Of a stretch of DNA of 31,872 nucleotides, positions 7,116 through 31,872 are shown piece by piece; position 1 is the first letter of the stretch, and each line of letters opens with the position of its first letter. A program made the translations under genes and the position numbers. This stretch comes from a virus (Duplodnaviria > Heunggongvirae > Uroviricota > Caudoviricetes). The stretch is from IMG/VR virus record IMGVR_UViG_3300045988_180666; one strand, written 5' to 3'. Below the pieces are notes generated by a model, which was not told the DNA's origin, did no database searches, and saw only the letters and a program-made list of their open reading frames with translations.

Positions 7116-7125
7116 ATGCAAAGAT
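7116..7125 (-). promoter_or_regulatory. Promoter -7 element (TATCTTTG on minus strand) for the 1159-aa gene
   Basis: Plus-strand TGCAAAGATA 14-23 nt from ATG at 7102; reverse complement matches Bacteroidetes -7 consensus TAnnTTTG. Confidence 0.55.
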
Positions 7126-13213: not shown

Positions 13214-13575
13214 GCTACGACTCCTCCCATCAGATAACCACCAAAGAAAACCACTGCCATGAAGGCTGCGAAGCCTAGTGTGGCCTTGACCACCTCGCCG
13301 TAGGTCACGCTCTCGTCGCAGAGTGCGGTGAAGGTCTCGCTCTCGGTCTTGGCGAGCTTCTTGATTTCACACTTGAGGGTATTGATACCCTCCTCTACGC
13401 TGATGCCTGCAGGTCTCACCTGCGCATCACTAATTAAAATTGAATTCTGCATAATTGCCATCTTATAACCATTATAGACCGACCTTGATGTATAAATACA
13501 ATGGTGGCGGTCACATTCACCGTTGGTTATAAGATGGTAGCTTTCCCAGCGAAGGGCAAGTATCTTACGGATCAT
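13210..13575 (-). CDS. Small membrane protein with single C-terminal transmembrane helix; holin/spanin-like candidate
   Basis: ORF track, 121 aa. Extreme C-terminus ATLGFAAFMAVVFFGGYLMGGVVA is one hydrophobic helix. Internal ATG at about 13461 is an alternative start. Function inferred from topology only. Confidence 0.45.
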   Translation of the reverse strand: MIRKILALRWESYHLITNGECDRHHCIYTSRSVYNGYKMAIMQNSILISDAQVRPAGISVEEGINTLKCEIKKLAKTESETFTALCDESVTYGEVVKATLGFAAFMAVVFFGGYLMGGVVA

Positions 13576-13814
13576 GCAACCGCCATATTGAAAAGACCTT
13601 TTTCCCGCTGCCGGGAAAATGATACTTTATAGGCATAAAAAAAGCCCACGGCGTGAAGCCTAGGCGAAACAGTCGCCATCGCTGAGTAGATTACTACTAT
13701 CTTATAACCGATGGCAAAAGTACGAAGAATAATTGGAACCGCCAAAAAAAAAGCGAGAAATTTTGAAATAAATGACTTTTTTATGTTTTAGAGCATAAAA
13801 CAAGGGGGTGAGGA

Positions 13815-13848
13815 ACGAAAAAGCCCCGGATGCTCACGCACCCGAGGC
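13815..13848 (-). terminator. Terminator after lower-GC three-gene cassette
   Basis: Stem GCCCCGG (13823-13829) / CCGAGGC (13842-13848) with one wobble; plus-strand A-run 13816-13822 gives T-run on minus strand; begins 7 nt after the stop at 13855. Confidence 0.5.
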
Positions 13849-13854
13849 TGACAG

Positions 13855-14247
13855 TTATTTTTGGAAATAAACTTTTAAAGGGATTGAATTCTCCACATTG
13901 CCAATTTTGAAAGAGAACTGATAGTTGCCCTCTGCAGGGAACTGGAGGTCGGAGAACTCAAAGATGAAGTTGCTGAAGAGAAACTCATCTGAAGGGTGTG
14001 GCTCAATCTTGGAATTGATGGGCTGGCCAAGAATCATCTTGCCAGTGCTCATCTCTGTAACCTCTGCCGAGAACTCTTGCTGAAGTTTGCTTTCCTCGCT
14101 GTTCATCTTAACTCTCGCTACCATGAAGAGGTTGCTCTTAGGCAGCGGTGCTTTTCTTACCACATAGTGGTCAAAAGTGCCCACGATGGTAAGTTTGCCG
14201 TCATTATCTTGTGCAAAGTCACACAATGCAAGAATATCTATGTTCAT
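13855..14247 (-). CDS. Hypothetical protein, gene 3 of lower-GC three-gene cassette
   Basis: ORF track, 130 aa. GC visibly lower than flanking structural genes. Stop directly followed by hairpin + T-run (13815-13848). Confidence 0.55.
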   Translation of the reverse strand: MNIDILALCDFAQDNDGKLTIVGTFDHYVVRKAPLPKSNLFMVARVKMNSEESKLQQEFSAEVTEMSTGKMILGQPINSKIEPHPSDEFLFSNFIFEFSDLQFPAEGNYQFSFKIGNVENSIPLKVYFQK

Positions 14248-14684
14248 TTTATATGTCCTTTAATGTTAGACTCGATAGCCGAGTGTTTGAAAAGTTTTTT
14301 ATAATTGTCGAATGAATATTTGAGTTTGCTCACCGTGCGCTTGTTTGTGCTCACTAGGTTGGCTCCATGTCTGCCAGAGATGCCTTCCTTGGTATTGAAC
14401 TTCAGAGAATTTCTTTTGGAGTCAACCCAAAGCCTGATGGCATCGCCTTGTATCTTGTCACCCACATTGCCATGGACGTTGAGATCTTCTCGTATTTTCT
14501 TGTCCTCTTCGTTGAGCTCAAGAGCTTCGGTGATTTCTACGGAACTATTTCGGTCTAGTTCGTATAATGTCATCTTTTTGCCCGTGATAGGTTCCTCTTT
14601 GAGTCCCTTCCACTCAGCCCTTCTGGCAATGACATCAGCTTTTTTGCCCTCTATGATTTCACCTTCTTTGATATATATAGCCAT
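14244..14684 (-). CDS. Hypothetical protein, gene 2 of lower-GC cassette
   Basis: ORF track, 146 aa. Lys-rich. 4 nt overlap with gene 3. Confidence 0.55.
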   Translation of the reverse strand: MAIYIKEGEIIEGKKADVIARRAEWKGLKEEPITGKKMTLYELDRNSSVEITEALELNEEDKKIREDLNVHGNVGDKIQGDAIRLWVDSKRNSLKFNTKEGISGRHGANLVSTNKRTVSKLKYSFDNYKKLFKHSAIESNIKGHIK

Positions 14685-15112
14685 TATTGGATACTTTTTT
14701 GCATTGATTTTTCACTGAAAGAGAATACCTCAGCCATATCATCAGGCGAGGTGATGCTCATGAGCGATGGGCTGACCTCAAGAGCCACCTCAATGTCTTC
14801 AATGGAAGCATCTTTATCTTGTTTGATGATGTACTTATCCTCATGCTCTTCAATCTCTTTATCAAACTCTTCTTCGGTAATATTGCCGTCAAGCATTTCG
14901 CAATATAGTTTGAAGTAGTTGCGCTCACGTGTGCGGTTGTTAACGGCACGAGTCATCAACTCCTTGAGTCTGTCGGCAGTACTGATGTTGAAAAAGTTAG
15001 CCTTATTGGTAACACCAGCGAATGCAACCTTGCCAGTACCTTTGTCTTGTATAGCCACAACAGGGCTGCCATCAGTTTGGTATGTTGTATATATAGTCGT
15101 TGTATTGCTCAT
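14684..15112 (-). CDS. Hypothetical protein, gene 1 of lower-GC cassette
   Basis: ORF track, 142 aa. ATG at 15112 is about 29 nt downstream of TGCAAAGATA motif (15141-15150). Acidic C-terminal half. Confidence 0.55.
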   Translation of the reverse strand: MSNTTTIYTTYQTDGSPVVAIQDKGTGKVAFAGVTNKANFFNISTADRLKELMTRAVNNRTRERNYFKLYCEMLDGNITEEEFDKEIEEHEDKYIIKQDKDASIEDIEVALEVSPSLMSITSPDDMAEVFSFSEKSMQKSIQ

Positions 15113-15140
15113 AATTCACATCCTGTTTATATTAACACGG

Positions 15141-15150
15141 TGCAAAGATA
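15141..15150 (-). promoter_or_regulatory. Promoter -7 element for the lower-GC three-gene cassette
   Basis: TGCAAAGATA about 29 nt from ATG at 15112; lies downstream of the radC terminator. Confidence 0.55.
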
Positions 15151-15266
15151 CGGATATTTTTTGTAAATCGCAAATTTAATGATAAATTTAACAACAAAAA
15201 TTGCAATAAAGATTGGAAAATGGTATATAAAAAATGCTCGACCGCTTTTTGGCTCTTGCCAGACGC

Positions 15267-15291
15267 TTTCGCCGCAGGCGAAAATTTTTGG
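15267..15291 (+). terminator. Possible plus-strand terminator hairpin adjacent to the radC terminator
   Basis: Stem TTTCGCC (15267-15273) / GGCGAAA (15277-15283), loop GCA, then ATTTTTGG on plus strand. No plus-strand gene ends here, so function unclear. Confidence 0.3.
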
Positions 15292-15320
15292 AAAATGAGG
15301 GGGAAGGTTTTAGCCTTCCC
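15283..15320 (-). terminator. Rho-independent terminator after radC
   Basis: Stem GGGGAAGG (15299-15306) / CCTTCCCC (15313-15320), loop TTTTAG; minus strand continues TCATTTTCCAAAAATT. Confidence 0.6.
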
Positions 15321-15323
15321 CTT

Positions 15324-15338
15324 ACCTTATTATATATA
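15324..15338 (-). repeat. Copy c (15 nt, inverted) of the AT-rich repeat
   Basis: Plus strand ACCTTATTATATATA = reverse complement of TATATATAATAAGGT; between radC stop and its terminator. Confidence 0.65.
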
Positions 15339-15340
15339 TA

Positions 15341-16024
15341 TTATAGCTTTCCTTTGTCGTGGTAGCTGTAGAAGCCATCCTCAGCCAAGATGATATGGTC
15401 CATCAAGAAAAGTCTCATCACCTCGCACGCCTTGGCTATCTTCTGCGTGAGCATATCGTCCGCCTTGCTCGGCTGCGTGCTGTTCGATGGGTGGTTGTGT
15501 GCCACGGCGATGATGGTTGCATTGTTGAGCACGGCTTCTTTCATTATCAGTCGAACGTCCACCGCTGTCTCGGTGATGCCTCCCTCGCTGAGCTTGGTGC
15601 ACTTTATCAGCCTAAAGTTTTGGTTCATCAGCACTACCCAAAAGCCCTCTGTCTCATTGCAGCCTATCATTGGGCGAAGATAGTTGTAGAGTGCCAGGCT
15701 GCTGCCTAGGTCGGTGTTTCTCGCTACCTTTTCCATTTGGTAGCGTCTGCCTAGCTCGATGGCTGCCTGTAGGGCTATCGCCTTGCAGTCTCCAATTCCT
15801 GGTACCACTTCCAGGTCTTCTATTCTCGCCTTGCCGATGTTGCGAAGCGAGTTGCCCATGATGTTATAAATCTGTCGTGCCTGCTCTTGGCTGTCCTTGG
15901 TACCTGCCCCTCTGTTGATTACCAAAGAAATCAAGTCAACGTTGGTAAGGGTGTCGAAACCTTGGTTATAGGCTCTGTACTGCGGTCTCTCCTCCATACA
16001 AAGATTGTTATAATTTTGTCTCAT
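15341..16024 (-). CDS. radC: RadC-like JAB/MPN-domain protein (UPF0758 family)
   Basis: 227 aa. N-terminal helix-hairpin-helix-like VVPGIGDCKAIALQAAIELG. C-terminal AVAHNHPSNSTQPSKADD matches the JAMM motif HxHx7Sx2D typical of RadC family. Confidence 0.8.
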   Translation of the reverse strand: MRQNYNNLCMEERPQYRAYNQGFDTLTNVDLISLVINRGAGTKDSQEQARQIYNIMGNSLRNIGKARIEDLEVVPGIGDCKAIALQAAIELGRRYQMEKVARNTDLGSSLALYNYLRPMIGCNETEGFWVVLMNQNFRLIKCTKLSEGGITETAVDVRLIMKEAVLNNATIIAVAHNHPSNSTQPSKADDMLTQKIAKACEVMRLFLMDHIILAEDGFYSYHDKGKL

Positions 16025-16039
16025 ATCTTTTGTTATTTG

Positions 16040-16564
16040 TTAGTTATACATTCTCTTTGTTCTCGCTAGGAACATCGCTCCCATCACTTGTGCGCCACAT
16101 TCGGCTAGCTCGTTGGCGAACTCTCGGGCGGTCGCTCCGCTCGTCACCACGTCGTCGAAGATGATGACTTTCTTTCCGCTGAAGTACTCTCTATCGAGTG
16201 CCACTCTGTAGTCGAAGCTCTCACACACTCTGTCTGTGCTGAAGTGCTTGGCTGTGCGCTCTCCATAGATGGAAATGTGCTCGTTTCCGTTCTGTACCTT
16301 TGCGCCTTGGCTCACCTTTTGGGCGAAGCGAGAAAAGCGCTTGGTGTACTTCTTTGAGTTGGCTGCTGGAGCGCAAACCATCACGAAGTCGCTGGCTTTG
16401 TCGCCATAGGTGTTGACGAAAGAGCTGACCACCATATCGGCAGCTGCGTCTGTCGCCCACTGCTTTCCATCCTTGAAGGCAAAGATGAAGTTTCTCACTT
16501 GCTCTGCTTGTGCTGAGCGGTCGAAACGCTTGGAGCTGTACTCGTAATAATTGAAAGTTTTCAT
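16040..16564 (-). CDS. Phosphoribosyltransferase (PRTase) domain protein, ComF-like
   Basis: 174 aa. KKVIIFDDVVTSGATAREFANELAECGA matches the PRPP-binding loop of type I PRTases. No N-terminal zinc-ribbon. 15 nt upstream of radC. Confidence 0.7.
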   Translation of the reverse strand: MKTFNYYEYSSKRFDRSAQAEQVRNFIFAFKDGKQWATDAAADMVVSSFVNTYGDKASDFVMVCAPAANSKKYTKRFSRFAQKVSQGAKVQNGNEHISIYGERTAKHFSTDRVCESFDYRVALDREYFSGKKVIIFDDVVTSGATAREFANELAECGAQVMGAMFLARTKRMYN

Positions 16565-17360
16565 ACGCTTAAAATTTTTATTCTAGCCAGAGGGAGGAAG
16601 GAGCTTTTTTATTTGAACTCGTCTTTGCCTGCCCGTCTGAGAGTTTTTTTTATTCTGTCCGTCGGTCGTTTTTGTCGCTTTTTACGGTGCGATGCAGACG
16701 AGCGGAGAAGAGGTATGAAAGCCAAGGAATTTTGCAAAAAGTTTATGGAAAACCGTCATCTCTGATTGCGGAAGGCTGCCGAAAAGTTTTTGGAAAATAG
16801 ATTTATCGGTACTTGGTGCATGCCGTCCGCCGTACCTTTGCACCCGAAAAAGAGATAATGACCGATGGATAACCGATAAAGGGAAAAGCTCTCGGACAGG
16901 AAAAGCGGGCAAAGAAAAGGCTCTGCCTTACCTTGGTGGTTAAGCCTTAGCGACGTTTGAGCGCCATCACGGTCACCACCGCTTGAAAATTCGCAAATTT
17001 TAACCCTAGCGTATGAAATGAAAGATGGAAAATTTGCGTCATCAAAAACACCATGTTTTTCAGACTTCAGGAGGAAAAACATACCTTGGAGCGATGAAAT
17101 CGCAGCATTTGGCATGCTTCGACCCCGAGGTTGAAGATGCCGAATGTGTCGTTTTGCGACAGGTTTTCCACACCCACGGATTGGAAAACCCCGATTTTAT
17201 CGTGGTTTTAGGGATTCAAAGGGAAAATAATTCCCCTTTGTCGGCGATAGCACCCCCCACCGCCCTACGCCCGAGCGCGCCTTCCGCCCCCTTGGAAAAG
17301 ACGGAATATGTAAAAGACCGTTAACGTTTTTGTAGGAATGTAAAAAGCCAAAAGGCACGA

Positions 17361-24074: not shown

Positions 24075-24084
24075 CGCAAAGATA
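24075..24084 (-). promoter_or_regulatory. Promoter -7 element for protease-capsid operon, embedded in a 12 bp-arm inverted repeat
   Basis: CGCAAAGATA about 22 nt from ATG at 24053; forms right arm of palindrome TATATCTTTGCG (24053-24064) / CGCAAAGATATA (24075-24086). Confidence 0.5.
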
Positions 24085-25951: not shown

Positions 25952-28906
25952 CTAGAAAGGTTTATCACTATCTTTATCTACCTTGCTCCAGTCAATGGTA
26001 GATTGATATTCACCCCCAGCTGCAGGGACATCAGCCTTGGCAGCTTGTTTATCCTCTTTTTTATCATCACTCTTCTTGCTTCGGAGATAGATCATCTCGA
26101 CAGGGCTGCCGTCTGGGTTAGCTGGATCGCGTCTGATGATGCGGTGCTGGCTGTTGCAGAGATCAGCTGGGTTCAGCTCTTGGATGTATGGACACAGCTC
26201 GACGAAGGCTCTGAGCTTTTTGGTGAAGCTCTGTGTGGTCGCCTTGTTGATGCCTGAGAACTGCTTGAAGTCATTGAACGCACGCTCTCTCACGATAAAT
26301 GTATCGAGTCGCTCGCTCTCTTCTGAGAAGTAGGATGCAGCCCAGTCTTCGAAGTTGACACCCATGTCGGCCTTGAACTTGCGCTTGATGATGTTATCCA
26401 TCGGTGGCATGATCTTGATAGGTTCGCCAGCCAAGGAGAGATAGAAACGACAGCACTGCAGGAAAAAGTTGATGTCAGCATTCCACTCATCCTCAGTGTA
26501 TGTCTTTGAGAAGAGATCTTCGTCGAAGTCATCACGGATGCTTCGGGTCTCTTGGTAATCATTCTCCTCTGTGCGCTGATGGTAATAGTCGGAGAACACC
26601 ATATAGAGCAGTCTCGCCTCTGAGGAAGGGTCGAAGTCTGCCGGCACGTAGTTGGTGGTGAAGGCAATCTTCGGGCTATCCTCGAAAGGAATTGTGAAGC
26701 TCTGGTTGTTCTTTGGGTTGACTGTCATATCTGAAGTAATGTTATCGTAAAATAAACCTGTGTTGAGATAGCGGTCACAGTCATCGAGGAGCAGCATCTG
26801 GGTGTGCTGTGTCACCTGATCGAAGACGTGTGGGTTGTCCATCAGCTTAGGGTTGCGTCCGGAAAGCTTGACTGTTTTCATCAGCAGTGAAAGCGTCTTG
26901 AAGAAGAAACTCTTACCGGAACGGCCGTTGCACTCGTTGTTTTCACCAATCTTGTTGTCCATCGCCATCGGAGCCCAAGCCCTGGATGGTGCCTTGTAAT
27001 GATGGAGCATGTAGCCGAAGGTGAAAATCTTGTTTATCAAGTTCTGCTTTTGCTCTTGTATCTCGTTGTCGGCAAGCCCTTCGCCAGCGATGTCGAAGAG
27101 GTGTGCCTTGTGGTATGCCTCTTTCTCCTCGATGCTCTTGTCCTCAAAAGCATACTCTAGCTCTTTGCGCCAGTAGGTGCGAGAGGCGTTGATGAGATAG
27201 CCGAAGAAGTGGGACTTCACGTTCTTGACCTCGATGTCGAACTTCGGCCTGCCATCCTCGTCGATGGTTCGGGTGATGGAGAACATGTCATCCAACTTCT
27301 TGAAGTTGTGGTTGATGACATTCTCTTGCCAAACATAGTTTTTGAGCGAGCTGCCCTCACGCTGGTACTCGTTTAGTCCATCTTTGGTGACCTCGACGCT
27401 GACACGAGGGAAGAAGAACAACTGCGAGTGGTTGGTGTAGCTGGTGAAGTCTAGCGTAATCTCTTGGAGCGAGTCGAGCGCCGATGCCGACAGCTTTGGC
27501 GTGTTGAGCACCAAGTTAAGGATGTCACGCTTCTCAGCTCTCTCGATGACCCATTGGCGGCAGAACTCACGGATGTCTCTCGTGGTGATGAGCTTGACGA
27601 TGTTGCCCGTGATGCGAACATATTTGGTGATGGTCGAGTTGTCATCGTGCAAGGTATAGAAACCATTGAGACGAAGAAAATTGTAGAGGCACGCCGTGTC
27701 GATGTAGTGGTCCCAGGTGTTAGCCTTTTTGTTGAGCTTGCTCACCCAAAATCGGGCTGGCATCGCCAGTGTCATGAGGTTGCGGAAGTCTTTGCGAGTA
27801 TTGCGCAGCTCCATCCAGTCTCGCAGGTCTTTGCGCCCCTTGCCACGGTTGTCGTGGTAGGTGCGAAGCCAAGAAGGCAACCATATCGTATGGATGTCGA
27901 TGAAGCGCAGGGCAAGCTCTGTGCCCTTGGCGATGCCCGTCTCGTCGATGTCGGGTATATTGTAGAGCACCTCGACATACTTCATAATCTCTCGGTACTC
28001 CTCGTCGCTGAGCTTGTAGGTCTCGGAGTTGAACCATAACGGGTTGTAGCCCATGGAACGGCAGCAGAGACTGTCACGCTCGCCACTGCAGATGAAAGCC
28101 TCGGGAAGTTTCTTCTCCTTGTAAGGCTTGGACTCGTCTGTGTTGGTCTTGTTGTACTCAGCCTCTTCACGGCGGTTGAACTCGTGATAGGCAGCCTTCA
28201 GCTCAGCTAGGCCATTGATGTATTGCTTAGGCTTGATGCCGTCTGGGGTGTAAGAGAATCGCCACTGCTTTTGGTAGTTGAGAGGCTCATATATCTTGTA
28301 GAACTTAACCTCAGGCTTGTCGCCTTCAGCTGGGCGAACCAAGCACTCACGCATAAAGATAGGGTAGTGCTCGTTGCTGTGCTTAATCTTGACCTTGCGG
28401 TCTTTGACGTATCCTATCCACTTGGCGGAATGCCAGTTGAGCGCATCGACGTGCTCTTGCTTGACGTTTGGACCCAGTACCTTCAGTTCATCTTCGGTGA
28501 ACTTCTCGTTCAGCTCGAAAGGTCTGGTACCATCTTTCTCGTTGATGGTGGCATCACGCTCTGTGAACGTAGGCTTGTTGACCTCTTTTTTGAGTTCATC
28601 GCTAACGTTGTATTCGGAAGCCAGTCGCAGGATAGCATCAGGAAAGCGGTCGATGCACTTCTCTCTCATGTAGAGGTCGATAGGTGACTCGGCAGATCCG
28701 TCGCCGCCGAAGTCTGTCACTCGCCAGCAGTCTTTGAACTTTTTGAGACTGCAGGAAGGTGTTTTCTCATTGCGGATGGCAAAGTGCTTTTTAGGCGTGC
28801 CAGTCGTGCAATATTTCTGGATGCATTCTTTTGCGTCCGGGTATAGTGAGATGATGATGTCGAGACCATCATCTGTAGCTTGATAAATTTGTTCTGCTTT
28901 GATCAT
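25952..28906 (-). CDS. Replicative primase / SF3 (D5/P4-like) helicase
   Basis: Track ORF of 994 aa. P-loop NGRSGKSF followed about 45 aa later by Walker B-like MLLLDDCD in C-terminal third. Track start overlaps the promoter -7 element, so the ATG at about 28906 (MIKAEQIYQ...) is the likely start. Confidence 0.7.
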   Translation of the reverse strand: MIKAEQIYQATDDGLDIIISLYPDAKECIQKYCTTGTPKKHFAIRNEKTPSCSLKKFKDCWRVTDFGGDGSAESPIDLYMREKCIDRFPDAILRLASEYNVSDELKKEVNKPTFTERDATINEKDGTRPFELNEKFTEDELKVLGPNVKQEHVDALNWHSAKWIGYVKDRKVKIKHSNEHYPIFMRECLVRPAEGDKPEVKFYKIYEPLNYQKQWRFSYTPDGIKPKQYINGLAELKAAYHEFNRREEAEYNKTNTDESKPYKEKKLPEAFICSGERDSLCCRSMGYNPLWFNSETYKLSDEEYREIMKYVEVLYNIPDIDETGIAKGTELALRFIDIHTIWLPSWLRTYHDNRGKGRKDLRDWMELRNTRKDFRNLMTLAMPARFWVSKLNKKANTWDHYIDTACLYNFLRLNGFYTLHDDNSTITKYVRITGNIVKLITTRDIREFCRQWVIERAEKRDILNLVLNTPKLSASALDSLQEITLDFTSYTNHSQLFFFPRVSVEVTKDGLNEYQREGSSLKNYVWQENVINHNFKKLDDMFSITRTIDEDGRPKFDIEVKNVKSHFFGYLINASRTYWRKELEYAFEDKSIEEKEAYHKAHLFDIAGEGLADNEIQEQKQNLINKIFTFGYMLHHYKAPSRAWAPMAMDNKIGENNECNGRSGKSFFFKTLSLLMKTVKLSGRNPKLMDNPHVFDQVTQHTQMLLLDDCDRYLNTGLFYDNITSDMTVNPKNNQSFTIPFEDSPKIAFTTNYVPADFDPSSEARLLYMVFSDYYHQRTEENDYQETRSIRDDFDEDLFSKTYTEDEWNADINFFLQCCRFYLSLAGEPIKIMPPMDNIIKRKFKADMGVNFEDWAASYFSEESERLDTFIVRERAFNDFKQFSGINKATTQSFTKKLRAFVELCPYIQELNPADLCNSQHRIIRRDPANPDGSPVEMIYLRSKKSDDKKEDKQAAKADVPAAGGEYQSTIDWSKVDKDSDKPF

Positions 28907-28932
28907 AATTCTTTTCCATTGTAAATTTGCTT

Positions 28933-28940
28933 GCAAAATT
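28933..28940 (-). promoter_or_regulatory. Promoter -7 element for primase-helicase gene
   Basis: Plus-strand CAAAATTA = reverse complement TAATTTTG, about 28 nt upstream of ATG at about 28906. Confidence 0.45.
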
Positions 28941-29074
28941 ATTGCAAAGCGAGTTCAAAACAAAATACTTATTTTTTGTCGCATAGAGCCTTTGGCTCAT
29001 ACTCGACGTATCTGTGGAGAGGGTGGCAGTATCTGCCATTGATGCAGTTGCTGCCATCCTCGCACTTTTGGCAT

Positions 29075-29386
29075 TTAATCGGTGGCATCGACTTTTATAT
29101 CAAAAGTGTCGTTGTGTAGCAACATCTTGGTATGAACATAAATTGGCTTTTGCTCATCCTCATCCCATCCAACCTCTCGGAAGTCTCTGCCATCGATATA
29201 GCATTCGGTGGCGTATCCTTTGTCGGTCCACTCTACGATATGGTCTTTGTCGAACTCGTCTCTTGCTGGCACTGTAGCCAGAACACGAGTGCCAAACTTG
29301 CTGTAGCTAATCTCGTGTATGGTTACGTTAGGATATTTCTCGATGATTGCCTCCTCGATAGATTTTGTCTTAGTCTTCTTTTTCAT
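29075..29386 (-). CDS. Hypothetical early-region protein
   Basis: ORF track, 103 aa. Third gene of minus-strand early operon. Confidence 0.5.
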   Translation of the reverse strand: MKKKTKTKSIEEAIIEKYPNVTIHEISYSKFGTRVLATVPARDEFDKDHIVEWTDKGYATECYIDGRDFREVGWDEDEQKPIYVHTKMLLHNDTFDIKVDATD

Positions 29387-29576
29387 TGTTCTTCATTCTG
29401 AATTTAACAATACCTGCCACGATGCCGTCTTCTTGGTCATCGTAGAACATATTTAAATCTGTTGTGCCCTTATGGAGTGTACCATAGGACACGTCAACGG
29501 CAACGCTGGCATCCTCGAAATCTTTGAGGATGGCTTGAAGCTGTTTGCTGTTGCATCTGACTGTCATTTTTCCCAT
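29370..29576 (-). CDS. Hypothetical small early-region protein
   Basis: ORF track, 68 aa. Confidence 0.45.
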   Translation of the reverse strand: MGKMTVRCNSKQLQAILKDFEDASVAVDVSYGTLHKGTTDLNMFYDDQEDGIVAGIVKFRMKNNEKED

Positions 29577-29788
29577 GATCCATCATTGATAATTTGCTCG
29601 ATGACCTCTCTGTCGATGGCACGCCAAGTATTGGTGCGCATCTTATTGTAGATGGTGTTCTGGCTCATCTCTAGCTTTAGCTGCAGTGTGGCCATGAACT
29701 TGCTTCTCTTTTTGCGTGGTATCTCATTATACCATGCGAGGATGATATTTTCATCATCATTTTTTTGTTTTTTTCTTGCATATTCCAA
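29564..29788 (-). CDS. Small basic protein, first gene of early lytic operon (Cro-like role possible); start uncertain
   Basis: ORF track, 74 aa with apparent non-ATG start at 29788; first in-frame ATG at about 29695. Divergent from repressor gene. -7 element about 22 nt upstream. Confidence 0.45.
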   Translation of the reverse strand: MEYARKKQKNDDENIILAWYNEIPRKKRSKFMATLQLKLEMSQNTIYNKMRTNTWRAIDREVIEQIINDGSWEK

Positions 29789-29798
29789 TATTTATTAT

Positions 29799-29806
29799 TA
29801 ATTTTG
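29799..29806 (+). promoter_or_regulatory. Repressor promoter -7 element (plus strand), back-to-back with early lytic promoter
   Basis: TAATTTTG on plus strand about 97 nt upstream of repressor ATG (29903); adjacent to the minus-strand element. Confidence 0.4.
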
Positions 29807-29809
29807 TTG

Positions 29810-29817
29810 CAAAGTTA
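29810..29817 (-). promoter_or_regulatory. Early lytic promoter -7 element (minus strand) in divergent switch region
   Basis: Plus CAAAGTTA = reverse complement TAACTTTG, 22 nt upstream of the 74-aa gene start at 29788. Confidence 0.5.
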
Positions 29818-29902
29818 GTAATAAAAATCGGAAAATACTAACGAAAGTAAGTAAAAACACCTACGATAATAGGTTAAATATTATTAATTAAATTAGGTAA
29901 TT

Positions 29903-30280
29903 ATGTTTAATGGTCAGATAATCAGAAAGTTAATGTCGGATGCTGGCTTAACTAAAAAAGAGTTTGAAAGACGTATGTTCGGTAGTAAATCGACCGACCT
30001 CAACCATTTGGAAAAAGCGAAGAATCTTCGCAGTGACACTCTCGAACGTCTGCGTGATGTGTTGAAGTGCTCTATGGATGACTTCTTTACAGCACCCTCA
30101 TGGGCTGAGAACGGAAAGGGGACAGTCGTAGGCTCTAACAATGTGCTGTCAACAGTAGCCATCGGCAACGAAGTGATGGAAGCCCAATATCTCAAGGAGT
30201 TGCTCTTGGAGAAGGACAAACGCATCAGCACTTTGGAAAATTATATCAAGCTTCTGGAGACTAACTTAAATAAGGACTAA
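29903..30280 (+). CDS. XRE-family helix-turn-helix transcriptional repressor (phage CI-like), with C-terminal coiled-coil
   Basis: 125 aa. N-terminal IRKLMSDAGLTKKEFERRMFGSKSTDLNHLEKAKNLRSDTLERLRDVLKCSMDDFF is a typical HTH_XRE. No S24 peptidase domain. Only phage gene on plus strand. Confidence 0.65.
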   Translation: MFNGQIIRKLMSDAGLTKKEFERRMFGSKSTDLNHLEKAKNLRSDTLERLRDVLKCSMDDFFTAPSWAENGKGTVVGSNNVLSTVAIGNEVMEAQYLKELLLEKDKRISTLENYIKLLETNLNKD

Positions 30281-30309
30281 TACGAAACATAATTCGTAAG
30301 ATGAATCCT

Positions 30310-30325
30310 TATATATAATAAGGTG
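30310..30325 (+). repeat. Copy b of 16 nt AT-rich repeat TATATATAATAAGGTG
   Basis: Exact 16-mer, 30 nt downstream of repressor stop, near presumed prophage right boundary. Confidence 0.7.
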
Positions 30326-30486
30326 TATAAAATATATCGTATAATCTCAGCAGTGATATCCAACTCGTTAGTCCTGCCGCCGCAACTAGTTTCGGGTAAG
30401 AAGTTGGTAAACAACATCTTATCCGATTTCTGTTTTTCTATTGGAACTATATCAGAACGAAATACTTTCCATTCCACATTCCTTTG

Positions 30487-30527
30487 ATATTCAATATTTA
30501 ACACTTATTATTTGCGTATATTGAATA
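30487..30527. promoter_or_regulatory. Inverted repeat ATATTCAATAT / ATATTGAATA upstream of TetR gene (candidate operator)
   Basis: Arms at 30488-30497 and 30518-30527. A related palindrome ATTCAA-AGTATA-TTGAAT lies at 31229-31246 upstream of fabG, sharing the 11-mer GTATATTGAAT. Confidence 0.4.
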
Positions 30528-30542
30528 AAAGTGCTACTTTTG
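30511..30542 (+). promoter_or_regulatory. Bacteroidetes-type promoter of TetR gene (-33 TTTG, -7 TACTTTTG) overlapping an inverted repeat
   Basis: TTTG at 30511-30514 and TACTTTTG at 30535-30542, 20 nt apart. Inverted repeat TTGCACA (30540-30546) / TGTGCAA (30559-30565) overlaps the predicted start site. Confidence 0.5.
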
Positions 30543-30591
30543 CACATTGATAATTTATTGTGCAACCAAATCTCGATGGAGGTACTTCGTT

Positions 30592-31188
30592 ATGTCAATA
30601 TCAAAAACTAGACAGAAATTAGTGGATGTCGCTCGACAACTCTTTGCAAAGAACGGAATCGCCAATACAACGATGAATGACATCGCTGTGGCTTCTGGTA
30701 AGGGACGTCGCACGCTTTATACCTATTTTAGTCGTAAGGAGGACGTCTATTACGCAGTGATAGAGTCGGAATTGGAGCGCCTTTCTGACAAACTTGACGA
30801 AGTGGCCGCCAGTAAGATTCGACCTCAAGACAAAATCATCGAATTGATTTATACCCACTTGAGCATGATCAAGGAGACTGTTGTCAGAAATGGAAATCTG
30901 AGAGCTGAGTTCTTCCGCAATATTTGGATGGTGGAAAAGGCTCGCAAGAATTTCGATGAAGACGAGATAGAACTTCTCAGGAAGGTTTATTCCGAGGGCA
31001 AGGCGGACGGCGAGTTTGACATCGATAATGTAGATTTGGTGGCTGACATCACACACTATTGCATCAAAGGTCTCGAAGTTCCGTTTATCTATGGGCGATT
31101 GGGACATGGCTTGAACGTGGAGTCGAGCAAACCGCTGGTTGCCAAGGTTGTCTATGGTGCTTTAGGAAAGTCGGGAATGAAGTTGTAA
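30592..31188 (+). CDS. TetR/AcrR-family transcriptional regulator (host-type)
   Basis: Track ORF starts at 30547; ATG at 30592 (MSISKTRQKLVDVARQLFAKNGIANTTMNDIAVASGKGRRTLYTYF) gives the canonical TetR N-terminal HTH. Bacteroidetes-type promoter upstream. Confidence 0.8.
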   Translation: MSISKTRQKLVDVARQLFAKNGIANTTMNDIAVASGKGRRTLYTYFSRKEDVYYAVIESELERLSDKLDEVAASKIRPQDKIIELIYTHLSMIKETVVRNGNLRAEFFRNIWMVEKARKNFDEDEIELLRKVYSEGKADGEFDIDNVDLVADITHYCIKGLEVPFIYGRLGHGLNVESSKPLVAKVVYGALGKSGMKL

Positions 31189-31331
31189 GAGATTGCTTGC
31201 TAGAATAGCGAAATGCTCTTTTTCTGTTATTCAAAGTATATTGAATGATGGACTAAACTTTCTTGCAAATTCTCAGCAAATCACAAATTGAATAATATAA
31301 AGTGTTAAATATCAAATAAATAAAAAGAAAA

Positions 31332-31872
31332 TGGGATTATTAACAGGTAAGACAGCCCTTATTACAGGTGCTGCACGCGGCATCGGTAAAGCTGTCGCAA
31401 TGAAATTCGCATCAGAAGGTGCTAACATCGCATTCACAGACCTAGTTCTCAATGACGACATGGCTGCTGGTTTGGAAGCTACTCGTAAGGAAATCGAGGC
31501 TCTTGGCGTAACATGCCGTGCTTATGCTGGTAACGCTGCTGATTTCGCGGAGACAGACAAGACTGTTAAGCAGATTCATGCTGACTTCGGTTCTATCGAT
31601 ATTTTGGTTAACAACGCTGGTATCACTAAGGATGGTTTGATGCTCCGTATGAGCGAGGCTCAGTGGGATGCTGTGTTGAACGTTAACTTGAAGTCTGCTT
31701 TCAACTTCATCCACGCTTGTTCTCCTATCATGCTCCGTCAGCGCAGCGGTTCTATCATCAACATGGCTTCTGTAGTAGGTGTTCATGGTAACGCAGGTCA
31801 GTGCAACTATGCAGCTTCTAAGGCTGGTATGATTGCTTTGGCTAAGTCTATCGCTCAGGAGTTGGGTCCTAA
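31332..31872 (+). CDS. fabG: 3-oxoacyl-ACP reductase-like short-chain dehydrogenase, N-terminal 180 codons (gene continues past window end)
   Basis: Hand translation MGLLTGKTALITGAARGIGKAVAMKFASEGANIAF...NNAGITKDG...YAASKAG shows Rossmann TGxxxGIG, NNAG and YxxxK motifs of classical SDR/FabG. Not in ORF track (no stop in-window). Confidence 0.8.

Follow-up and report, generated by a model that had tools for sequence, protein, structure and literature searches.

A horizontally exchanged three-gene moron operon of Segatella/Prevotella phages with a possible antiviral role

Presence, boundaries and composition of the cassette

The 31,872-nucleotide (nt) stretch of IMG/VR virus record IMGVR_UViG_3300045988_180666, here called the window, contains an autonomous, dispensable and horizontally exchanged operon of three genes (gA, gB and gC; the triad), whose products are constrained and always co-inherited. 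At the sequence level it shows patchy presence, its own promoter and terminator and a distinct composition, and it can be regarded with high confidence as a moron, that is, as accessory cargo. Horizontally acquired cargo had been proposed in a first-pass annotation of the window, and base composition, presence and absence among relatives, and divergence of the cassette compared with its flanks all agree on this point. The opposite outcome, core proteins found in all relatives and of normal composition, was looked at and fails on both counts. The best overall explanation, which we hold tentatively, is that the phage is a temperate Segatella copri/Prevotella siphophage carrying, in a cargo hotspot, a moron operon that would act as a toxin–antitoxin (TA)-like or abortive-infection system.

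The features of the cassette are listed below; the minus strand carries every gene in this part of the window.

13815..15215, minus strand: whole mobile unit of ~1.4 kb (promoter, three genes and terminator), from homology breakpoints between relatives with and without the triad
15175..15198, minus strand: AT-rich palindrome AAATTTA-N-TAAATTT, which abuts the -33 element, from an inverted repeat
15143..15174, minus strand: sigma-A-type Bacteroidota promoter (-33 TTTG, 20-nt spacer, -7 TATCTTTG), from sequence only
15112..14684, minus strand: gA, 142 amino acids (aa), from the list of open reading frames (ORFs)
14684..14244, minus strand: gB, 146 aa, from the ORF list
14247..13855, minus strand: gC, 130 aa, from the ORF list
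13815..13849, minus strand: intrinsic terminator with a 12-bp stem, 4-nt loop and U5 tail, from folding

The genes gA and gB share 1 nt (TAATG) and gB and gC share 4 nt (ATGA), so that the three tightly coupled genes of the first-pass annotation are borne out by the ORF coordinates and overlaps; the edges of the unit derived from homology also nearly coincide with those it had drawn. The rest of the window resembles a siphophage or prophage morphogenesis region, with a ClpP-type prohead protease, a 1,159-aa tape-measure-like protein and a DUF6712 protein, as well as a 533-aa protein with a weak match to the large terminase. gA was found at 99% identity in a metagenome-assembled genome (MAG) of Segatella copri, and IMG/VR contigs of a human-associated metagenome are essentially identical to the window.

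Sixty related IMG/VR loci were gathered through the conserved 353-aa gene, and 40 of them are complete between the 533-aa and 353-aa genes. The expected variation at the same locus was found: the triad was present in 24 and absent from 16 of these 40 Segatella/Prevotella phage loci, many of which are on contigs from a single metagenome, so that locus counts are non-independent samples. An upstream pair of genes, for a phosphoribosyltransferase (PRTase) and a RadC-like protein, varied in the same way. Both units were carried by 20 loci, the triad only by 4, the PRTase–RadC pair only by 4, and neither by 12; as all four combinations occur, the presence of each unit is independent of the other. 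The breakpoints between loci with and without the triad fall at 15138–15233 on the left (~15215, just upstream of the promoter) and at 13815–13855 on the right (terminator or stop codon).

The cassette is 99–100% identical across phages with flanking core genes that are 75–94% identical (75–79% for the 353-aa gene). Between the window and one relative (L034), synonymous divergence (dS) was 0.000 for both gB and gC, against 1.17 and 0.77 for the flanking core genes of the 353-aa and 533-aa proteins, respectively. Where dS was measurable, the ratio of nonsynonymous to synonymous divergence (omega, dN/dS) was 0.04–0.07, indicating strong purifying selection on the triad genes; the gA values of three pairs were left out of this analysis because of a wrong start in the ORF call. 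Other relatives have, at this locus, a second triad allele that is 76–82% identical.

The cassette had been described as more AT-rich than the flanking genes, and both the per-gene values and a 500-bp profile agree. The G+C content (GC) of gA, gB and gC is 0.420, 0.420 and 0.433, compared with ~0.53 in the flanks, and these are the three lowest values among the 32 genes of the window (mean 0.51). At third codon positions (GC3) the values are 0.46, 0.48 and 0.55, and mostly 0.60–0.81 in the backbone genes. The profile shows 0.41–0.43 across 13501–15500 versus 0.49–0.58 on both sides. This difference is not restricted to the window, since the cassette is 9–13 GC points under its flanks in four independent carrier lineages, is lower than the carrier flanks in 26 of 26 Bacteroidales genome loci (mean -9 points; Wilcoxon p = 8e-6), and is also lower in 16 further viral loci.

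Transcription signals and encoded proteins

The -7 element of the cassette promoter, TATCTTTG (pattern TAnnTTTG), is located at 15150–15143 and the -33 TTTG at 15174–15171, with a spacer of exactly 20 nt, and the ATG of gA lies 31 nt downstream of the promoter. In the 31.9 kb there are 6 occurrences of the full bipartite pattern, just 3 of them on the coding strand, versus 0.4 by chance (0/100 shuffles reach 6). Elements of the TAnnTTTG type were also found upstream of gA in other carriers, including 21 of 26 genome loci. The decamer TATCTTTGCA, which corresponds to the Bacteroidota -7 element plus CA, is present on the minus strand at 7117, 12480, 15141 and 25216, and at 24075 with one mismatch. 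These copies lie just upstream of the tape-measure, 353-aa, gA, 198-aa and protease genes, and matches with up to one mismatch number 17 versus 2 expected; the decamer appears to mark the transcription units of the phage. Because it also precedes other operons, the cassette promoter is of the ordinary type of phage and host. The cassette does have its own promoter, as previously annotated, but the term "phage-type" is not quite right for what is an ordinary host-type sigma-A Bacteroidota promoter. It stands out by its canonical -33 element, with which no activator would be needed, suggesting that the cassette promoter could be activator-independent. The palindrome next to the -33 element is a possible operator, and the promoters of other lineages have different repeats nearby.

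The hairpin and T-run predicted downstream of gC proved to be a strong intrinsic terminator, with a G+C-rich stem (13849–13822), a dG of -23.3 kcal/mol and a z of -5.0; the upstream RadC gene is followed by a weaker hairpin. Promoter and terminator elements comparable to those of the window surround the triad in other carriers. In triad-free relatives (L001, L036 and L048) the same terminator hairpin closes other cargo, and thus doubles as a shared boundary sequence. As the hairpin is common to the triad and to other cargo, recombination at shared boundary sequences is suggested as the means by which cassettes are exchanged.

The gA protein is acidic (isoelectric point, pI, 4.6) and belongs to a family of 394 clusters at 50% identity. 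Its AlphaFold2 model (predicted local distance difference test, pLDDT, 89) contains a variable N-terminal three-stranded sheet followed by a 32-residue helix, which bears the near-invariant motif A-V-N-N-R-T-R-E-R-N-Y-F. After this helix there is a SHOCT-like turn (G-x-I-T-E-E-E-F) and then three C-terminal helices (H104–116, H123–130 and H134–141), which in the model resemble a helix-turn-helix. The only family signals of gA are sub-threshold matches to SHOCT in 8 of 74 members and to Imm59 in 5 of 74 (best E = 0.0065). The stretch L-x-G-x-I-T-E-E-E-F-D-K-E-I resembles the two-helix motif of SHOCT (PF09851), and this, like the resemblance to Imm59 (PF15597), should be taken as a lead and not as family membership. 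No function has been established for SHOCT itself (Eberhardt et al. 2013, PMC3581485).

The gB protein is basic (pI 9.4) and more conserved than gA, with a predicted beta-rich fold and two helices (pLDDT 81.8; predicted template modelling score, pTM, 0.76). At least 95% of 27 diverse members share residues R21, R45, N46, D76 and H106, which would be compatible with a catalytic or ligand-binding site. A relationship of gB to ribosomal protein uS9 was considered and rejected: the NCBIfam match reached only E = 0.087, the hhalign probability against E. coli S9 was 0.9% over 12 columns, and Pfam scans of 23 members gave no support.

The gC protein is acidic (pI 5.0) and is a full-length member of Pfam family DUF6941 (PF22091; E = 6.3e-21, 75.5 bits versus a cut-off of 27), the match spanning residues 5–126 of gC and positions 2–124 of the 125 in the model. 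The family was matched by 15 of the 15 triad and free-living homologues tested. gC diverges fastest, with 27–32% identity between contexts versus 44–59% for gA and gB, and its conserved residues are C9, D10, G23, P34, G107 and Y109. DUF6941/PF22091 was mentioned in none of the papers found by a literature search.

No hydrophobic segment was detected in the triad proteins, with maximum 19-residue Kyte–Doolittle values of 0.85 (gA), 0.23 (gB) and 0.56 (gC), compared with 2.01 in the neighbouring 80-aa membrane protein; a classical, membrane-anchored superinfection exclusion by the triad is therefore unlikely. gA and gB have no family in PHROGs or NCBIfam, the gA, gB and gC profiles found nothing in the PDB below E = 0.1, and the gB model had no structural match in BFVD and matched no known toxin fold. 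At the RNA level, the whole window was unmatched in Rfam. gA and gB are protein families without detectable sequence or fold relatives.

Other carriers, the cargo hotspot and the downstream leader

Homologues of gA and gB place the triad in at least four distinct contexts:

after the PRTase–RadC pair, in the lineage of the window
directly upstream of the ClpP and major capsid protein (MCP) genes
at the end of the early region, convergent with a polyvalent protein of ~5,300 aa, in L013-L016
inside the tail module, upstream of the tape-measure gene

It was also found in further viral backbones and in integrase-adjacent islands; in all, the gA–gB–gC order recurs in no fewer than eight phage or island settings, and the cassette is always more AT-rich than its carrier. 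In L013-L016 the polyvalent protein extends on the minus strand from 8390 to the locus end (~5,300–5,460 aa, with a 3,506-aa call in L016) and contains MuF_C, ddrB-ParB, ART-PolyVal, InPase and PBECR domains.

When GTDB was scanned with one genome for each species, gA was detected in 27 species genomes, all of them Bacteroidales, among them Segatella, Prevotella, Bacteroides, Parabacteroides, Muribaculaceae, Proteiniphilum and Porphyromonadaceae. The genes gA, gB and gC were adjacent and in the same order in 26 of 26 evaluable loci, with gB split in two of these. The split copies are in Prevotella MAGs (L091, 6375-6827; L093, 6327-6779), each as two ORFs with gA and gC intact, and are apparently frameshifts or pseudogenes. 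Very distant chromosomal variants keep the gA–gB pair (hhalign 94.8% for gB) and have an unrelated upstream gene in place of gC; in free-living Chitinophagaceae, DUF6941 is a lone chromosomal gene without gA and gB. Since the pair persists without gC and DUF6941 occurs alone, the triad may consist of a two-gene core that recruited an exchangeable third subunit.

A single gB variant was indexed in 625 blocks of an assembly collection. GenBank phage records (INPHARED) gave no protein-level match to gA, and PLSDB plasmids gave none to gB. In a DNA search of the phage collection the sole match was to the downstream leader and 80-aa gene, with the cassette unmatched.

In relatives without the triad, small units in shuffled order fill the region from the 533-aa gene to the 80-aa gene. 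HicA/HicB-like pairs occur there, as do DUF2335 and DUF5053 proteins, a SocA/Panacea antitoxin-domain gene and its 123-aa partner, a 338-aa protein, a 196-aa gene on the reverse strand, and others; this hypervariable hotspot is seen in L036, L038, L045, L046, L048 and other relatives. In the window, the PRTase–RadC unit (15341-16564, minus strand) encodes a ComF/ShosT-like PRTase of 174 aa followed by a RadC-like JAB protein of 227 aa. The PRTase weakly resembles ShosT (E = 1.6e-9) and PsyrT (E = 9e-9) of PADLOC, and the unit is a second accessory element, possibly a pair for defence or anti-defence.

Tyrosine recombinase (Phage_integrase) genes were observed in close relatives (L004, 10004-11113; L005, 13313-14290; L007, 11398-12375). 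They sit amid the morphogenesis genes, between the 80-aa and 89/103-aa genes, and some of them are accompanied by an N6-methyltransferase fragment and HicA. They may be nested integrative elements or recombinases that act on the hotspot. Two other stretches of the window are also low in GC. One is a 119-aa ORF (16756-17115; GC 0.45, GC3 0.44) that is variable among relatives. The other is the right end (29075-31872; GC 0.36–0.45), which carries full bipartite promoters on both strands, three in all (28898–28964 and 30511–30542), and may be a regulatory or lysogeny region.

The ~280 bp of non-coding DNA that had been noted after the cassette turned out to belong to the next gene. These 280–320 bp (13764–13440, minus strand), located between the terminator and the next ORF, are the conserved leader of the 80-aa membrane-protein gene and precede it in 53 loci; as this holds with the triad present or absent, the leader is separate from the cassette. 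A full promoter of its own, TTTG-N20-TACTTTTG, is located at 13746–13715, and there is a terminator-like hairpin with T7 after it. The leader also holds three copies of GGTTATAAGAT, at 13709–13699, inverted at 13525–13535, and at 13470–13460 just before the start codon. These are part of a 14–17-nt element whose three copies co-vary across 15 diverged phages. Copies 2 and 3 can form 17 pairs, with 98.8% paired, 8 compensatory pairs and no G-U intermediates (0/500 shuffles as high), and the leader RNA fold has a z of -5.15 and no Rfam family. The repeats could be specificity-variable sites for a protein or recombinase. The leader could also be an RNA switch, in which copy 2 would pair alternately with copy 1 or copy 3 and mask the ribosome-binding site. 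DNA inversion of the repeat-flanked leader was discarded, as 53 of 53 loci are collinear. The leader is arguably as interesting as the cassette.

Possible functions of the triad

The triad probably works as one functional three-protein unit; a defence or TA-like function for it is a possibility that we rate below an even chance. In such a scheme, the host-type -33/-7 promoter would drive three translationally coupled genes and the strong terminator would shield them from the late genes around them. With these signals of its own, the triad would need no phage activator and could be expressed from the prophage or right upon entry. The three soluble proteins would form one cytoplasmic complex. 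In this complex gA could be the neutraliser and autoregulator, with the palindrome abutting the -33 element, and gB the effector, with its conserved polar residues R21, R45-N46, D76 and H106. The fastest-evolving protein, gC (DUF6941), could be a specificity or sensor subunit, and the complex would protect the lysogen against other phages. In its most specific form, which is less likely than not, the proposal is that of a three-component system against phages (abortive-infection or TA-like) that has not been described before and is confined to mobile elements of Bacteroidales. It would be composed of two folds without a solved relative plus a DUF6941 specificity subunit, and would spread from promoter to terminator among human-gut Segatella/Prevotella prophages.

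Several features resemble type II or tripartite TA systems. The genes are small, adjacent and overlapping on mobile elements, the acidic gA lies upstream of the basic gB, and this pair is kept even without gC. The putative toxin gB is better conserved than the putative antitoxin gA, whose modelled C-terminal helices resemble a helix-turn-helix and whose promoter has a palindrome. Weak, below-threshold matches to the immunity-protein family Imm59 occur among gA members, and the hotspot of relatives carries HicA/HicB-like pairs, the SocA/Panacea gene and the ShosT-like PRTase. Unlike those systems, the triad has no homology to any toxin or antitoxin family, the gB fold matches no known toxin fold, and DUF6941 as a third gene is without TA precedent. 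A number of observations weigh against the overall explanation. No PADLOC-DB v2 family was matched by gA, gB or gC (E up to 0.1), nor were Pfam toxin/antitoxin models or NCBIfam models matched by the triad proteins, and all the Imm59 and SHOCT matches of the gA family fall below threshold. For an antitoxin, gA has an unusually conserved motif (the near-invariant NNRTRERNYF), and one context has counter-defence-like neighbours (DNA methylase, PAPS reductase and polyvalent protein). Finally, the GC of the cassette correlates with that of its carrier (r = 0.56), and low GC is thus a persistent property of the module, not simply the mark of a recent foreign origin.

In a rival reading, the triad would serve counter-defence: expressed at once on infection from an activator-independent promoter, it would neutralise a host immune system, the acidic gA perhaps working as a mimic or sponge and the fast-evolving gC perhaps binding a variable host defence protein. 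The acidic character of gA and gC (pI 4.6 and 5.0), the fast evolution of gC and the lack of a defence-model match would fit such a role. So would the position of the triad in L013–L016, where it ends an early region with a DNA methylase, a phosphoadenosine phosphosulfate (PAPS) reductase and a 'Sequestin'-domain gene, convergent with the polyvalent protein. In the window the triad follows a RadC-like JAB protein, and anti-restriction regions of mobile elements commonly encode proteins of the RadC-like kind. However, every carrier seems to be temperate or integrated (contigs of as much as 260 kb, adjacent integrases), the hotspot partners in the lineage of the window are TA-type modules, and Pfam and PHROGs searches gave no match to known Acr, Ard, Ocr or Tad families. 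A coupled three-gene unit with a basic R/N/D/H protein would also be unusual, known anti-defence proteins being mostly encoded by single small genes, and we consider counter-defence unlikely.

Less likely still is a regulatory or lysogenic-conversion function, in which gA would bind DNA or RNA and, together with gB and gC, reprogramme host or prophage transcription, for example in induction control or host physiology. It is consistent with the three helix-turn-helix-like helices at the end of the gA model, with its Arg/Asn-rich invariant helix, which suggests nucleic-acid binding, and with the palindrome abutting the -33 element and the different repeats near the promoters of other lineages. 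An accessory role in virion structure or assembly, as a decoration protein, chaperone or tail accessory, is close to refuted. The cassette does lie between head and tail genes, and three of its contexts are inside or next to morphogenesis genes on the same strand. Nevertheless, 16 of 40 close relatives with otherwise the same structural genes do not have it, and it occurs at early-region ends and beside integrases. It also has its own promoter and terminator and a deviant composition, with no PHROG structural match and no BFVD match of the gB model.

The arrangement recalls the morons of lambdoid phages, such as HK97 gp15 and lambda bor and lom, reportedly described by Juhala, Hendrix and colleagues in 2000. 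As in those cases, extra DNA is found in only some relatives, between late-operon genes of the same strand, with its own promoter and factor-independent terminator and a base composition unlike that of its neighbours. In contrast, the triad comprises three translationally coupled genes and not one, resides in Bacteroidales phages with -33/-7 TTTG/TAnnTTTG promoters, has a putative expression from the prophage, and encodes proteins unrelated to known moron products. The site is also similar to the defence hotspots of P2/P4 phages (2022, PMC9122126) in that a fixed position between core genes, here the 533-aa and 353-aa genes, receives alternative shuffled cargo that includes TA-type modules. 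It differs in phage lineage and host phylum, and in that the cargo is a candidate antiviral one, of which PADLOC sees only the weakly ShosT-like PRTase. The triad thus combines a familiar moron architecture and evolutionary behaviour with uncharacterised protein content, outside the catalogued defence, TA and anti-defence families.

Segatella and Prevotella are among the most abundant human gut bacteria, are poorly tractable and have numerous prophages. Should the triad act in defence or counter-defence, it would represent a phylum-specific system invisible to PADLOC, Pfam and PHROGs, would add two uncharacterised protein families, one of them of 394 clusters at 50% identity, and would reveal a P2-like hotspot of exchangeable conflict cargo in Segatella/Prevotella phages. 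Whatever its role, it is an unusually clean and quantified moron outside the Proteobacteria, with defined promoter-to-terminator boundaries that are directly usable for cloning.

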